In this document: piece by piece, positions 4,303-39,700 of the stretch | Layout of the letters: each line of letters starts with the position of its first letter | Numbering within the stretch: position 1 is the first letter of the stretch | DNA from: Clostridia bacterium | GTDB lineage: Bacteria > Bacillota > Clostridia > RUG12999 | Assembly (NCBI GenBank): GCA_045633565.1 | Contig: JAZQYO010000007.1 | Coordinates: forward strand, 8,724-72,723 | DNA length: 64,000 nt | Direction of reading: 5' to 3' | Notes under the pieces: generated by a model | What the model was told of the DNA's origin: nothing | Databases searched by the model: none | The model's input: the letters and a program-made list of their open reading frames with translations, nothing else | Made by a program: the position numbers and the translations under genes

Positions 4303-5427
4303 CTAATTTGCTTTTCTCTTGACGTATGCCGAGAAAAGTGAGTAAATGAGCGCAAAAACCGGCACTCCTATAAGCATTCCGGCAATGCCGAAAAAGCCAC
4401 CGCCCACGATAATCGCAAACATTGTCCAAAATGGCGATATTCCTGTTGAATCGCCAAGTATTTTTGGTGAAATGATGCTGTTGTCAACCTGCTGAAGCAC
4501 CAGCACTAAAACCACAAACCAAATTGCCTGCAGCGGGCTTACCACCATTATCATAAGAGTAGCAATTATTCCACCAATCCACGAGCCGAAATAAGGAATA
4601 AGATTGGAAATACCTATGATAAATCCTATCAGCTCCGCAAAGGGCAGACGGAGAATCCACATTCCTATTGTGCAGATTACACCGACAATTATGGAATCAA
4701 TAATTTTTGCACCGATAAAACCGGAGAAAATCTGGTGTGCGTCACCTGCCACATCAATAATTTTCTGCGCATGGCCCGGTTTTGTGAATGCTTTTACAAG
4801 CATTTTTCCCTGACGAATGAATTTTTCTTTATCATATAGCATGTAAAGGGATATGATAAATCCTAAAATAATATTTATTACACCTCTTGCAAAGGATGTC
4901 ACGCCCGAAAATACTGCGGCAATAGAATCTCCAGAGTATGTAAGCGCAAGGCTTGTTGCACCTTTTACAAGCTTCTGAATATTTTCCGCTACAATAGCTT
5001 CGTATTCTGTATTCTTTATGAATCCCTCAACGGCAGCATAGGCTTTGGGTGCCCATTCCTGAACCTGCAGAGCAAACTGCGCAATGCTTTTGCCAATCTG
5101 AGGAACAATCAGTATGCAGAAACCTGTTATTGCACCCAATACCATCACGTACGCCGATATAATTGATAAAACTCTGCGAAGTCTTGATTTGGGATTGCTT
5201 TTTTTCACCCGCGAAAACCATTTTTCGCATACTTTTACAACAGGGTTTATGAGGTAGGCAATTATAAATCCGTTTACAAACGGAACAATCACCTTTGCTA
5301 TTTTACCTACAGCTCCCCACGCCACGCCAATATGGTTTAAAACTGCCCAAAAGCATAGCGCCGCTGCAATAACCAAAAATGCGTACACCGCAATGGTGGT
5401 ATATTTTTTGTTGAATTCCGGCTTCAA
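4303..5427 (-). CDS. AI-2E family transporter (PerM/UPF0118 permease)
   Basis: 374 aa polytopic membrane protein with N-terminal TM, multiple hydrophobic segments and typical AI-2E length and organisation. Confidence 0.75.
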   Translation of the reverse strand: MKPEFNKKYTTIAVYAFLVIAAALCFWAVLNHIGVAWGAVGKIAKVIVPFVNGFIIAYLINPVVKVCEKWFSRVKKSNPKSRLRRVLSIISAYVMVLGAITGFCILIVPQIGKSIAQFALQVQEWAPKAYAAVEGFIKNTEYEAIVAENIQKLVKGATSLALTYSGDSIAAVFSGVTSFARGVINIILGFIISLYMLYDKEKFIRQGKMLVKAFTKPGHAQKIIDVAGDAHQIFSGFIGAKIIDSIIVGVICTIGMWILRLPFAELIGFIIGISNLIPYFGSWIGGIIATLMIMVVSPLQAIWFVVLVLVLQQVDNSIISPKILGDSTGISPFWTMFAIIVGGGFFGIAGMLIGVPVFALIYSLFSAYVKRKAN

Positions 5428-5465: not shown

Positions 5466-6068
5466 TTAACAGCAAGGAATTAAATCTCCACCCATACATT
5501 CACACAAACAGTCTGCACAGATAAGGTTTGAACAACAGTTGCAGCAATCATCCTGCGACATATTTCCGGTGTTCATATTGCGATAACCGCCTGCGTTTTG
5601 CTGCATGGCCATAAAAGCATTTTTATATTCTGTGTTCATTGGGTCTTTGTTTGTAGCGGTTTTAAAGCTCTGATATGCCGCATTGTAATTTCCCCGTCTT
5701 AAAGCAACGCATCCTGTCAGATAATGCCACTCGGCATCGTGATTTTTCATTTCCGAAAGCAGCCTTTGTGCCTCGGTAAGATTTCCAATGTTGATATACT
5801 GACGAATTTGTTTATACTCGGGCGAAGAAGCTCCCGTAAAAGTATTTGAGCCCGGCGTGGACTGCTCGCTCTGCGCCTGTTTTGCTCTGTCTTTTATTAC
5901 CTCGTCATAAGCCTGGGAAAGCTCCTGGCGTTTTTTCTCGGCAAGGTCTGAGAGGGGGCCGCCGGTATATTTTTCTTCACCATATTTTTCCATCAGCGCT
6001 TTATAGGCTGCGTCAATTTCCGCCTTGCTTGCGTTTTTATTTACTCCGAGTATTGAATAAGCGTCCAT
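5466..6068 (-). CDS. J-domain-like / TPR-like protein with a C-terminal cysteine-string tail
   Basis: N-terminus DAYSILGVNKNASKAEIDAAYKALMEKY resembles a DnaJ J-domain but lacks the HPD tripeptide. A helical repeat region sits in the middle. The C-terminus DDCCNCCSNLICADCLCECMGGDLIPCC carries 11 Cys in 28 residues. Confidence 0.5.
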   Translation of the reverse strand: MDAYSILGVNKNASKAEIDAAYKALMEKYGEEKYTGGPLSDLAEKKRQELSQAYDEVIKDRAKQAQSEQSTPGSNTFTGASSPEYKQIRQYINIGNLTEAQRLLSEMKNHDAEWHYLTGCVALRRGNYNAAYQSFKTATNKDPMNTEYKNAFMAMQQNAGGYRNMNTGNMSQDDCCNCCSNLICADCLCECMGGDLIPCC

Positions 6069-6069
6069 T

Positions 6070-6873
6070 TTACCTCTCTTTCAGGACTTTTTCCGTAGCA
6101 TTTTTAAGTCCGATATATACTATGTTGTCAAGTATCTGTTTGTTACGTTTTACATCCAGCAGCTCGTATGCCGCTGCTGCTGCGGACAGATTGTACCACA
6201 AAGCCTCCGTCTGAGAGTCAATCTCCTCCGCTGACGAAAAGGGGTTATATCTGCCTTTTATTTTATCCTTTTCAAAATCGTCTATTGCGTCAGTTACATA
6301 TATCCATCTGCCGATGTTGTAACCAAACTCGTAAAGCGCACGGTTTTCTGTATCTGCCATGCAGAAAAGCTCCGCCATCAGTCTGCCAAATGCTCCTGCC
6401 GGAATATCTATATTTTTTTCGGCAAGTTTTTCAGCTTCTGTTATTTCACAAAGATATTTTTCTATATTTTTAAGTTTGTCCGGATATTTCTTTTTTATTT
6501 TATTTACCTCAGGTTTTAAAGCCAGCGCCGCATTTTTTATGCTAACGCCTTCATCCCGGAAATCATCAAGCGCCTTGTAATATGTGAGAGCAACGCTCAT
6601 TTGTGCGCAGTAGTCCATACTGCTGCTTTTTGTAACAACCGGACGTTTTTTAAATGGATGAAGCATGCATCTGCCCGCCGAAACTGTTGGCCTGTCATCT
6701 TCCATTGAATCAAGAAGCAGTGCTAAAACAGTAAAGTCATAGCTTAAAATAAGTCTGCTTGCCGGTCCGCAAAGTTTCCCCTGCCTTTTACATAGTCCGC
6801 AGTAATACGCATTAAAAAGCCGCAGCTCTTTTACTTTAAGCTCATCACGACATACATTTACATATCCAAACAT
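6070..6873 (-). CDS. hypothetical protein with N-terminal Cys cluster (YCGLCK..C), co-operonic with the J-like gene
   Basis: 267 aa. Only a 1-nt gap to the downstream J-like gene. Contains N-terminal CxxC...C and no other recognisable catalytic motif. Confidence 0.4.
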   Translation of the reverse strand: MFGYVNVCRDELKVKELRLFNAYYCGLCKRQGKLCGPASRLILSYDFTVLALLLDSMEDDRPTVSAGRCMLHPFKKRPVVTKSSSMDYCAQMSVALTYYKALDDFRDEGVSIKNAALALKPEVNKIKKKYPDKLKNIEKYLCEITEAEKLAEKNIDIPAGAFGRLMAELFCMADTENRALYEFGYNIGRWIYVTDAIDDFEKDKIKGRYNPFSSAEEIDSQTEALWYNLSAAAAAYELLDVKRNKQILDNIVYIGLKNATEKVLKER

Positions 6874-6951
6874 ATTGATTACCTCTTAAATTATAATTTT
6901 ACCATATAATAGTATCGTTTGCAAGTTTTGTAACAAAAATTTCATAAACGG

Positions 6952-6980
6952 AAATCTCCCGCCGGTTTGCGGGAGATTTT
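6952..6980 (-). terminator. terminator hairpin (TCTCCCGC-cggtt-GCGGGAGA)
   Basis: Perfect 8-bp GC-rich stem directly after the stop of the 6982-7464 gene. T-run on the plus side and a weaker one on the minus side. Confidence 0.5.
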
Positions 6981-6981
6981 A

Positions 6982-7464
6982 TCAGTCTTCAATTACATAA
7001 TTTATGTCGGTAAATGTTATCAGCATATATGTTTGCTGCTGTGAAATGCGTATTTCAGTTCTGTCGTTTTTCCAGTAATATTCATAGGCAGTCATGGTTT
7101 CTTCATACTCGTCCGCCTCACCGTATTTTTTCTCAAACGCTTTTATAATTTTATCGGCAAGTTTGTCCTCGTATCCTTCCATATCATATCCCATACTAAC
7201 CTGCCACAGCCCGTTTGCGCCGTCAAAATTGTAAAACACATTTGTTTCAACCGGAACGCCCTCAAGATTATCCACTTTATATGACAAACGATATGACGAG
7301 TCTACTATAATCTTACCGTCTTCACGGGCTTTTATCTTCTCGGGGCTCATTCCCCATTTTGCTCTGCGGAAATCCCCACCGAGGGACACGAGCGCAAGTG
7401 TTGCAATTGCAACAACTAAAACTGCCGCAATGATAATAATTACAGTTTTTTTACTTATTTTCAT
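6982..7464 (-). CDS. membrane-anchored hypothetical protein
   Basis: 160 aa with N-terminal TM helix (VIIIIAAVLVVAIATLALV) and an acidic soluble domain. Confidence 0.45.
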   Translation of the reverse strand: MKISKKTVIIIIAAVLVVAIATLALVSLGGDFRRAKWGMSPEKIKAREDGKIIVDSSYRLSYKVDNLEGVPVETNVFYNFDGANGLWQVSMGYDMEGYEDKLADKIIKAFEKKYGEADEYEETMTAYEYYWKNDRTEIRISQQQTYMLITFTDINYVIED

Positions 7465-38150: not shown

Positions 38151-38182
38151 TTCACTATTATAATAATGAAAAGGTGGTTTTA

Positions 38183-38746
38183 ATGAAAACAAAAAAACTT
38201 ACTCTTGCAGGAATGCTTATTGCTCTTGCCACCGTTTTGTCCCTTATCAAGATTTTTGATATGCCCTATGGAGGCTCGGTTACGGCAGGAAGCATGGTTC
38301 CTATAATTATTTTTTCCATGCAGTGTGACACAAAATGGGGCATAACCCAGGCAATATGCTATTCCATTATACAGTTGATGCTTGGCTGGTACGCACCTCC
38401 TGCCCAGAACTTTGTTTCCTTTGCAGCAGTAATTTTGCTGGATTATGTAATAGCTTTCGGCGGACTTGGACTTGCAGGCCCGATAGCTCGCAGACTCGGA
38501 GGAGGCCGGTCGGCAACAGCCGTCGGCGTGATTTTGGTTCTTTTTATAAGATTTTTATGCCATTTTTTGTCAGGAATTTTAATCTGGGGAAGCTTTGCTC
38601 CCGAAGGTCAACCGGTATGGCTCTATTCGCTGCTGTATAATGGTGGATATATGCTCGGAGAAACGGTTGTAACATTGGCAGCAACCCTTTTGCTCCTTTC
38701 ACGCAAAGGCCAAAACTGTAAAAATTTACCAAAAAGCGGTGTATAA
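38183..38746 (+). CDS. thiT: thiamine ECF-transporter substrate-binding (S) component ThiT
   Basis: 187 aa with 6 TM helices, preceded by a TPP riboswitch. ATG 38183 has an AAGGTGG RBS. The ORF-track GTG 38174 is also possible. Confidence 0.8.
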   Translation: MKTKKLTLAGMLIALATVLSLIKIFDMPYGGSVTAGSMVPIIIFSMQCDTKWGITQAICYSIIQLMLGWYAPPAQNFVSFAAVILLDYVIAFGGLGLAGPIARRLGGGRSATAVGVILVLFIRFLCHFLSGILIWGSFAPEGQPVWLYSLLYNGGYMLGETVVTLAATLLLLSRKGQNCKNLPKSGV

Positions 38747-38914: not shown

Positions 38915-39700
38915 ATGGGAAACACAATACTTATAATTGACGATAACAGAGAGTATGGGGACAAGCTTAAAAAGGAACTGGCTGTTTATCCGGAATTTGG
39001 TGAAATTTTAAATGCAACCGGTGGCAGGGCGGGCCGTGATATGGCTGCAAGATATAATGTCGATGTTATTGTTTGTGAAGCTATCATGAGAGATGGAGAT
39101 GGATTTTCGGTTGTTGAGGATATTTTGAGGACTTCCGTTACAAAGCCTGTTATAATAATGATATCTTCATTTACCAATGAAGCCATGATTGCAAGGGCGG
39201 CGTCAAGCGGTGCGTCTTTTTATCTGCCCAAGCCTTTTGACGCTACAACTCTTTACCAGCACATCTCGTTTTTCACCAAAATGAAGGAAAAACCTGTTAA
39301 TGCCATGATAAGCGAGACGGACGATGACGAGTATGACATTGAAATAATGGTAAGCAATATGATAAAAACCATTGGTGTTCCGGCACACATTAAAGGATAT
39401 CAGTTCCTGCGTGATGCCATAATGTGGGTGGTTGAGGATATGGAGCTTATCAACGCCGTAACAAAAGAGCTTTATCCCGGAATTGCGAAGAAGCATAAAA
39501 CAACCTCATCAAGGGTTGAACGGGCAATTCGCCATGCTATAGAGGTGTCCTGGCAGAGAGGCGACGTGGAAACATTAAACAAGCTTTTCGGTCACACTGT
39601 GAAATTTACCAAGGACAAGCCCACAAACTCAGAGTTTATCGCAATGATAGCTGACAGGATAAGACTTCAGCTTAAACGACAGGGCAAAAAAGCGTCTTAA
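38915..39700 (+). CDS. spo0A: Spo0A-like response regulator (Spo0A_C DNA-binding domain) with Glu at the predicted phospho-acceptor position
   Basis: The C-terminal region [53 protein letters not shown] is diagnostic of Spo0A_C. The receiver domain has DD (res 9-10) and the conserved K (LPKPF). Where Spo0A has LVLDIIMP (D56) this protein reads IVCEAIMR. Confidence 0.85.

Follow-up and report, generated by a model that had tools for sequence, protein, structure and literature searches.

DUF5685, a protein of predicted isoprenoid synthase fold, is obligately paired with a cysteine-tailed J-domain protein across Clostridia

Introduction

Why would a bacterium end a J-domain protein in a string of cysteines, and what does the protein encoded immediately upstream of it have to do with that string? 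The question is raised by a locus in a 64,000-nucleotide stretch of the genome of a Clostridia bacterium (contig JAZQYO010000007.1; hereafter 'the window', to which all coordinates refer unless a locus number precedes them). A first-pass annotation made from the letters of the window had pointed to two adjoining genes, and both were present on the minus strand in the list of open reading frames (ORFs). One encodes a 267-amino-acid protein of the family DUF5685 (6070..6873, minus strand), which has a fold like that of trans-isoprenyl diphosphate synthases (trans-IDSs) and which we presume to be an enzyme that uses a prenyl diphosphate. The other encodes a 200-amino-acid protein with a J-like domain, tetratricopeptide repeat (TPR)-like helices and a cysteine-rich tail (5466..6068, minus strand; hereafter the J/TPR protein). 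A single nucleotide, 6069, lies between the TAA stop codon of the DUF5685 gene and the ATG of the J/TPR gene, and the ribosome-binding site of the latter (GAGAGG) sits inside the 3′ end of the former.

The annotation had considered the family of the cysteine-tailed protein to be undescribed, and in our literature searches we found no paper on it either. The searches returned nothing relevant on bacterial cysteine-string J-proteins or on trans-IDS-like enzymes that target cysteine, no paper that combined 'cysteine string', 'J-domain' and 'Firmicutes', and no functional work on DUF5685 (PF18937), whose name we met in a single paper, as one of the domains listed for the hypothetical proteins of C. 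difficile R20291 (PMC9403866). Of the conclusions reached below, the fold assignment of DUF5685 and the obligate pairing of the two genes are solid, and the chemistry that we propose for the pair is offered as a testable hypothesis.

DUF5685 and the isoprenoid synthase fold

The product of the upstream gene matched the Pfam model of DUF5685 with an E value of 4.3e-84 (282.6 bits, residues 1–261 on profile positions 1–271 of 272), and its AlphaFold model had a predicted local distance difference test score (pLDDT) of 92.2 and a predicted template-modeling (TM) score of 0.90. All of the top 57 matches of the protein were of the class I isoprenoid fold, and Foldseek gave the same answer with a probability of 1.0 and TM scores of up to 0.62. 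DUF5685 thus has, in its predicted structure, the class I all-helical fold of isoprenoid synthases, and we regard its assignment to this (trans-IDS) fold as solid. Profile searches at the sequence level yielded a weak NCBIfam match to HpnD, no match at E ≤ 1 to the Pfam models PF00348 and PF00494, and a best, non-significant E value of 0.5 against the PDB.

The two Asp-rich motifs that are characteristic of the fold could both be placed. The first (D103-D-F-R-D107; 6553..6567, minus strand) lies at the end of the helix formed by residues 84–108, has the DDx(2–4)D pattern of a first Asp-rich motif (FARM) in its DDxxD form, and was set by hhalign, weakly (E 0.15), on the FARM of E. coli IspA. 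The second Asp-rich motif (SARM)-like segment (D195-A-I-D-D199-F-E-K-D203; 6265..6291, minus strand) was aligned by HMMER to DDIIDVTQD of IspA 3llw, again weakly (E 0.5); it has Ala as its second residue, and an invariant Tyr192 takes the place of the FQ glutamine. The marks by which isopentenyl diphosphate (IPP) is bound in chain-elongating enzymes, GKRxR and an RRG after the FARM, were not found, D107 being followed by DEGVSI, and we conclude from its sequence that DUF5685 lacks the signature of IPP chain elongation. Against IspA, IspB, HexPPS and MoeN5 the protein is only 8–16% identical, and it differs from them in the missing RRG and FQ marks and in having no PF00348 match. Relative to canonical trans-IDSs it has additions of its own: a β-hairpin, a putative Cys3(His) site and a near-invariant MFGYV N terminus.

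A homologue search returned at least 1651 homologue clusters, and we counted conservation in two sets, one of 119 homologues and one of 72 independent metagenome sequences. Residues G3, Y24, C69, D103, D107, E148, G188, Y192, D195 and D199 were invariant in both (119/119 and 72/72), and D203 (119/119 and 69/72), Y4 (119/119 and 71/72) and N210 (115/119 and 72/72) were nearly so. Within the N-terminal MFGYV (6859..6873, minus strand), M1 and F2 were each found in 117 of the 119 homologues, alongside the invariant G3. The putative metal site, for Zn or Fe-S, has two halves. The first, C25-G-L-C28 (6790..6801, minus strand), has both cysteines in 119/119 homologues; the metagenome set is uninformative for these two, which were preset by the search pattern. 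The second, C69-M-L-H72 (6658..6669, minus strand), is carried in the model by the β-hairpin of residues 63–82, and its histidine is present in 94/119 and 63/72 sequences. The same hairpin holds a conserved K76-R77, a conceivable counterpart of GKRxR. The N-terminal Cys cluster that the first-pass annotation had seen in this protein therefore holds in part: its CxxC is real and C25, C28 and C69 are invariant, but C8 and C35 are unconserved.

Pairing of the two genes

We looked at the neighborhood of the pair from both of its sides. When we started from the J/TPR protein, all 80 of 80 loci from GTDB species had a DUF5685 gene immediately before the J gene and in the same orientation, most commonly with a 4-nucleotide overlap between the two. 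Starting from DUF5685, we scanned metagenomes with a pattern inside that protein, so that the scan was blind to its partner, and obtained 80 loci at 34–52% identity; even at the lower end of this sampling, ~34% identity, the order of the genes held, and a J-domain ORF lay directly downstream in 80/80. Its start fell between about −70 and +100 nucleotides from the end of the DUF5685 frame, an estimate that rests on stop-to-stop frames in these 80 loci, and some partners on contigs of 1–3x coverage look truncated (loci L097, L147, L153 and L164). Five further look-ups all had the same DUF5685–J order, which brings the count from the DUF5685 side to 85/85 and the overall count to 165/165. The suspected operon was thus borne out by its gene neighborhood, with adjacency in every locus examined. 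Across the class Clostridia the pair is thus an obligate module of two genes whose translation is coupled, the obligate pairing being solid.

The J/TPR protein and its tail

The N-terminal residues 2–64 of the J/TPR protein (5877..6065, minus strand) scored 32.8 bits against the Pfam DnaJ model PF00226, above its gathering score of 27.8, the J helices are visible in the AlphaFold model, and Foldseek matched solved J domains at target-normalized TM scores of 0.73–0.79, including the DnaK-bound J domain of 5nro. Against NCBIfam the protein gave a weak match to DjlA. At the position of the His-Pro-Asp (HPD) tripeptide, which is needed for Hsp70 stimulation, the window protein has G30-E31-E32 (5973..5981, minus strand), and the family alignment shows HPD in its relatives there. 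The J-like N terminus without HPD that had been read from the sequence was therefore correct, and by their profile matches the window protein is a member of PF00226 by fold rather than by HPD, and the DUF5685 gene product a member of PF18937. Residues 83–163 (5580..5822, minus strand) are TPR-like, as had also been supposed: Pfam TPR_2, TPR_19 and PknG_TPR all matched, each under its cut-off, AlphaFold modeled a helical repeat at pLDDT 80–90, and the Foldseek matches included PcrH, YrrB, MamA and the TPR of PknG.

A homologue search returned at least 503 full-length relatives of the J/TPR protein. Among the 120 closest, 85 keep HPD and 35, which are the 35 nearest to the window protein, have SEE, GEE or similar instead; nearly all distant relatives keep it. 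In the HPD-less clade helix II also has fewer basic residues than in HPD-bearing sequences (2.8 versus 4.3). Because most relatives keep HPD, the J/TPR family is a normal J-protein family in which loss of HPD is confined to the small clade of the window, where the Hsp70-stimulating surface has decayed.

The C-terminal string (residues 173–200, DDCCNCCSNLICADCLCECMGGDLIPCC; 5469..5552, minus strand) contains 10 cysteines in 28 residues, one fewer than the 11 first counted, and the remaining 172 residues contain one. Given the 1.38% cysteine in the long ORFs of the window, the probability of at least 10 in 28 is 2.7e-12. Residues 161–200 fall below pLDDT 50 in the AlphaFold model, so that the tail is predicted to be disordered. 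In the subfamily of the window the tail pattern C-[ND]-C-C-[ST]-N-L-[IL]-C-A-D-C-[CL]-C-E-C-M-G-G-D-L-I-P-C-C hardly varies, even among sequences with no more than 41% overall identity, with eight conserved cysteines together with N181, L182, A185, D186, E190, G193, G194 and D195. We scanned the GTDB species, each represented by one genome, for two patterns of the tail and confirmed it in at least 591 species genomes, and all 80 of the loci that we examined among them were from Clostridia (Oscillospiraceae, Acutalibacteraceae, Christensenellales, Butyricicoccaceae and Petroclostridium).

Is the tail a module that travels on its own? A profile of the tail alone, run against 1.84 billion representative proteins, returned 162 matches in which the tail is nearly always C-terminal. 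Sixty of these are full-length J/TPR/tail proteins, and the others are fragments or ORFs with unrelated N termini (for example P0245, P0288, P0313 and P0316), the latter being provisionally taken to be assembly or gene-calling artifacts; sets of representatives at 50% identity seem to hold more than their share of such cases. Since the matches outside the J-proteins are fragments or presumed artifacts, and no second credible architecture was found among the 162, we rejected the idea of a mobile module.

The more distant partners, which were reached from the DUF5685 side, carry other tails (…MPYCVPCFFPCCC, …FCADCITCYCLSSLCSPCW, …CCRMILCNVALNALCGGCRC, …CCDCSDCCNCCTTWLCCNCMC and …CVKLIIANIALNVFCGGGGAICNGLCAIC). 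The unique tails that are complete, 58 in number, have 4–11 cysteines in their last 30 residues (median 8); 55/58 have a cysteine among the final four residues, and the mean Kyte-Doolittle hydropathy is +0.89. Our alignment of these short Cys-rich segments is approximate; in it, the core that is common to the family comprises C179 (58/61), C191 (50/57), C199 (59/59) and C200 (38/44) and the G193-G194 turn. Positions 178, 184, 187, 188 and 189 alternate between Cys and I/L/M/F/A from subfamily to subfamily, and the number and spacing of the cysteines vary widely. On this alignment the string would be mostly hydrophobic, with a core of three or four cysteines, and the exchange of Cys for I/L/M/F, with only three or four universal cysteines and the GG, is more what one would expect of a lipidation or membrane segment than of a fixed metal cluster. 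The doubt whether the tail might be mere low complexity is thereby answered: it is a conserved hallmark of the family, and the relatives are all Cys-rich and hydrophobic at their C terminus. All that the partners of DUF5685 have in common is this C terminus, predicted to be disordered, together with the J domain and the TPR domain. In a few loci the usual …GGDLIPCC end becomes …GGNLIPCIGCR or …GGNLIPCCGCR (L069:5941-6627; L155 and L161), so that CC is not always the very end of the protein.

How close does this architecture come to that of DnaJC5 (CSP-α), the eukaryotic cysteine-string protein (CSP) with which it had been compared? Both have an N-terminal J domain and then a dense string of cysteines, and this much of the comparison, the J domain and the Cys-rich composition, stands; it fails on HPD, on the position of the string and on similarity elsewhere. 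The string of CSPs is internal, is palmitoylated by DHHC enzymes, and is lipidated for membrane binding, in proteins that lack TPRs and keep HPD. The string of the window protein instead is C-terminal, follows a TPR domain in a protein without HPD, and is paired with a protein that resembles prenyl enzymes. What defines DnaJC5, namely the combination of a J domain with HPD, an internal string of ~12–14 cysteines, and a conserved linker and C-terminal domain, was not found here. In keeping the J fold without HPD the window protein is like the J-like regulator Tim16/Pam16. Tim16 is mitochondrial, and DjlA is a bacterial J-protein that keeps HPD and is anchored by an N-terminal transmembrane helix; both lack TPR repeats and a Cys tail, unlike the window protein.

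Proposed mechanism and alternatives

What might an isoprenoid-synthase-like protein do with a J-protein that ends in cysteines? The fold, the conserved motifs and the adjacency of the two genes are observed. From them we infer the binding of a prenyl donor, its acceptor, a Zn site, prenyl transfer and membrane anchoring, and we tentatively propose, while rating it somewhat short of probable, that DUF5685 S-prenylates the tail of the J/TPR protein and so anchors this protein to the membrane. In the proposed sequence of events an allylic prenyl donor, for example farnesyl diphosphate (FPP) or geranyl diphosphate (GPP), would be held by its diphosphate, together with Mg2+, at the two invariant Asp-rich motifs; binding of Mg2+ and of an allylic prenyl diphosphate is the general function of Asp-rich motifs in this fold. 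The acceptor would not be IPP, because the marks for IPP are absent. DUF5685, acting as a soluble enzyme, would rather pass the prenyl group on to the thiol of one or several cysteines in the tail of its downstream-encoded partner, and the likeliest targets would be the family-wide conserved C179, C191, C199 and C200. The Cys3(His) site would bind Zn and activate the thiolate, as happens in eukaryotic protein prenyltransferases, which use a Zn-thiolate (PMC13290415). The lipidated tail would then hold the J/TPR protein at the cytoplasmic face of the membrane, where, in most lineages, the HPD-bearing J domain would recruit DnaK. In the clade of the window, since HPD and basic residues of helix II have been lost, the J/TPR protein would do without DnaK and serve as a TPR scaffold tethered to the membrane.

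The nearest precedents that we found for such chemistry are ComQ, PalQ and the ChrPC enzymes, which are trans-IDS-like enzymes that prenylate a peptide encoded by a neighboring gene (PMC13290415; PMC5331326). DUF5685 resembles ComQ/ComX, PalQ, the P domain of ChrPC and StheQ in its trans-IDS fold, its Asp-rich motifs and its occurrence in Firmicutes (PMC13290415, PMC5331326), and, as in ComQ/ComX, the enzyme gene stands immediately upstream of the gene of the presumed acceptor polypeptide and overlaps it. An adjoining candidate acceptor gene is present throughout (at 1 nucleotide in the window, and in all 165 loci), and by this analogy the tail of the co-translated partner is the presumptive acceptor. 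The two systems differ in what would be modified: ComQ-type members prenylate Trp in short secreted peptides, whereas the candidate acceptor here is Cys in a 200-amino-acid cytoplasmic protein. In ComQ-type enzymes a Gln immediately upstream of the SARM serves indole recognition (IPR033965; PMC13290415), and DUF5685 has its invariant Tyr192 at the equivalent position. It also has an extra invariant Cys3(His) site that the ComQ group lacks, and no sequence-level family match to that group was found.

A second set of comparisons concerns the acceptor side. Yeast Ydj1 and human DNAJA1/2 are type I J-proteins with a prenylated C-terminal Cys that serves membrane association, and the …IPCC end of the J/TPR protein resembles the CC of Rab proteins, whose C termini end in CC or CXC (PMC10853753). 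Farnesylated J-proteins and Rabs depend on Zn-dependent α/α-barrel heterodimers, a fold unlike that of DUF5685, and the CaaX box is absent here; neither the α/α-barrel β subunit nor the TPR-like α subunit of farnesyltransferases and geranylgeranyltransferases was recognizable in DUF5685. By analogy, then, the J/TPR protein may work like the cysteine-string proteins or the farnesylated Ydj1/DNAJA proteins without belonging to either group.

Several points weigh against S-prenylation of the tail. We infer the donor, the acceptor and the metal alike. The sequence matches of DUF5685 to isoprenoid enzymes are individually non-significant (E 0.13–0.5), and we have therefore used them to place motifs only, leaving the fold match to carry the claim of homology. 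The characterized trans-IDS-like peptide prenyltransferases all modify Trp rather than Cys, and endogenous protein S-prenylation is not among the classes of bacterial prenyltransferases that a review covers (PMC13290415). The 26-residue tail of the window's subfamily is also conserved far beyond the need of a simple lipid anchor; such conservation could equally be that of a metal-binding knuckle with a fold of its own or of a tight protein–protein interface, and C179, C191, C199 and C200 could, on their conservation, be a Cys4 metal site. Finally, translational coupling implies ~1:1 synthesis, which is more typical of stable complexes than of enzyme–substrate pairs.

The strong conservation of the whole tail in the subfamily, the four family-wide cysteines and the translational coupling keep two other explanations alive. 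DUF5685 could be a small-molecule isoprenoid enzyme that works on FPP or GPP, for instance by cyclizing them, by removing their diphosphate or by a non-canonical prenyl transfer, and the J/TPR protein could be its stoichiometric partner; the latter would be a regulatory or tethering subunit whose tail is no acceptor and is membrane-inserted or acylated, and the lipid product would be delivered there. We consider this account rather unlikely: it leaves unexplained why almost all subfamilies have retained three or four cysteines and one among the last four residues, as well as the invariant Cys3 site of DUF5685 itself, and the near-terminal Cys and this site weigh against a purely passive anchor. 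Nor was any further isoprenoid-pathway gene found to be consistently linked to the pair in the loci, and a motif search for a polyprenyl synthase gene found none in the window or in the first 80 related loci (L001–L080). The first-pass annotation had favored a metal- or redox-linked chaperone-like module, in which the tail would bind Zn, Cu or Fe-S or would sense thiol redox state, and the J/TPR protein would serve DUF5685 as a dedicated HscB-like co-chaperone or as a metallochaperone, loading its Cys3(His) site or protecting it, or would be an oxidation sensor in these anaerobes. J-proteins dedicated to a single Fe-S client do exist, as HscB with IscU, and much in the pair would be in keeping with such a role: the four family-wide tail cysteines, the eight conserved cysteines and conserved acidic residues in the tail of the window's subfamily, the three invariant cysteines and frequent His of DUF5685, a tail that AlphaFold leaves unfolded without ligands, as expected of a metal-dependent fold, and again the coupling and the strong conservation of the whole tail. 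The variable number and spacing of the cysteines and the replacement of many by I/L/M/F are unusual for a defined cluster, however, and because the window's clade has no HPD, the core function that is conserved in the family cannot consist in Hsp70-driven transfer. This account also offers no explanation of the invariant Asp-rich motifs of DUF5685. With the partner turning out to be DUF5685, its trans-IDS fold and intact Asp-rich motifs point to isoprenoid chemistry rather than to a generic metal or redox module, and we now think this explanation unlikely.

Two further accounts we hold in much lower regard. That the J/TPR protein is a bacterial homologue of DnaJC5, bound to the membrane by an S-acylated string, with the upstream gene incidental, would account for the shared order of parts, a J domain and then a Cys-rich string, and is very improbable given that similarity was found in the J domain only, that a TPR domain intervenes before a string at the extreme C terminus, and that a gene paired in 165/165 loci is not incidental. 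That the tail is compositional noise and the genes are neighbors by chance is almost certainly wrong; we found no support for it, and it is refuted by that same pairing and by the conservation of the tail in at least 591 species genomes and 162 representative clusters, nearly always at the C terminus, as well as by the P value of 2.7e-12 for the cysteine count.

Returning to S-prenylation, its fuller form would be that Clostridia have an endogenous S-prenylation system in which DUF5685 is a Mg2+/Zn-dependent cysteine prenyltransferase of the class I fold that lipid-anchors a J/TPR co-chaperone, a claim that we find possible yet doubtful. It would make DUF5685 the first trans-IDS-like enzyme to target Cys and a full-size protein, and the J/TPR protein a convergent bacterial counterpart of the cysteine-string and farnesylated J-proteins in at least 590 species, many gut Oscillospiraceae among them. 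Prenylation of proteins on cysteine is, to our knowledge, regarded as a eukaryotic trait. Should the chemistry be confirmed, trans-IDS-like prenyltransferases would gain a new acceptor residue and a new class of substrate, bacteria would be found to lipid-anchor a cytoplasmic chaperone cofactor, a function would be assigned to DUF5685 and to an unnamed family of J-proteins that is common in gut and rumen Clostridia, and the pair might serve as a compact tool for C-terminal protein lipidation; a review from 2026 covers only two bacterial families of peptide-prenylating enzymes (PMC13290415). Even if the tail is not an acceptor, the isoprenoid synthase fold of DUF5685 and the obligate pairing stand, and we found neither in the literature searched.

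Neighboring genes

In the window the pair lies in a region flanked by PolC and PheS. Upstream of the DUF5685 gene we noted a σ70-type promoter-like site (TTGCAA, 17 nucleotides, TAAAAT, with a TG extension; 6896..6924, minus strand), which is a consensus match only, in a region whose 10 promoter-like sites are no enrichment over a shuffle mean of 7.4. Farther upstream, a terminator-like hairpin (TCTCCCGC..GCGGGAGA and then a T-rich run; 6945..6977, minus strand), which we read from the sequence and which is absent from the output of the terminator scan, marks the end of the preceding gene and the 5′ boundary of the two-gene unit. That gene (6982..7464, minus strand), between PolC and the pair, encodes a 160-amino-acid protein that has an N-terminal hydrophobic segment and no family match; we found a homologue of it solely in the closest locus, L001.

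On the other side, an AI-2E family permease gene (4303..5427, minus strand; PF01594, E 9e-54) begins 38 nucleotides downstream of the J/TPR gene. The scan of the minus strand predicted no terminator between the two, and the permease gene is possibly co-transcribed with the pair. The permease of the window has a weak YtvI-like score. An AI-2E permease lies directly downstream of the J gene in the five HPD-less loci as well (L001–L005, at 40–86% identity), and in 0/75 of L006–L080.

The HPD-bearing loci have a different gene in this place. Of the 75 HPD-bearing GTDB loci, 73 encode a polytopic membrane protein of ~176 amino acids next after the J/TPR protein, and the other two (L006 and L015) end ~200 nucleotides past the J gene; among metagenome loci it is found there in 23/64, and the window and L001–L005 lack it next to the pair. 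That a gene for a membrane protein comes after the pair in most loci with the window's type of tail, and in roughly a third of the more divergent ones, counts in favor of S-prenylation with membrane anchoring. Loss of HPD thus coincides with a swap of the downstream membrane gene, and since a single clade is concerned, the two count as one event. The membrane proteins are 160–180 amino acids long and share the motifs Y..FFG.YP..K...E and F..YD (L007:5722-6243, L040:6838-7371, L059:6643-7173 and 70 other loci); L040 is from Petroclostridium sp. X23. They matched nothing in Pfam or NCBIfam at E ≤ 5, and with no match to ICMT or CPBP at that threshold, and with the family absent from the clade of the window, we rejected a role as an ICMT- or CPBP-like processing enzyme. 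Elsewhere in the window, a 190-amino-acid polytopic membrane protein (38174..38746, plus strand), which by eye resembles an S component of energy-coupling factor (ECF) transporters, weakly matched the profile of this family (E 5e-5), a match that may only reflect transmembrane composition.

Other genes adjoin the pair more sporadically. A radical SAM/SPASM gene comes right after the J gene in two loci (L081:6503-7627 and L082:6503-7627), and in L089 and L127 there are ORFs with a CxxxCxxC motif after the pair. These radical SAM-like ORFs might be tail-modifying enzymes in a few lineages, or a coincidence; with CxxxCxxC ORFs near the pair in few lineages only, we rejected radical SAM/SPASM maturation of the tail, on the model of ribosomally synthesized and post-translationally modified peptides, as a core component. 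In 17 of the 80 loci, an ORF of ~680 codons, which by eye resembles an IspH–S1 fusion of the isoprenoid pathway, and a cmk-like gene were seen, the former ~4.6 kb downstream of the J gene (for example L027:9686-11719), which could be ordinary Clostridia synteny. Sporulation genes were also met: sipL and yunB (encoding SipL and YunB) lie near the pair in L081 and L082, and the window itself encodes a response-regulator-like protein (38915..39700, plus strand) that by eye resembles Spo0A, which suggests a spore-forming organism.

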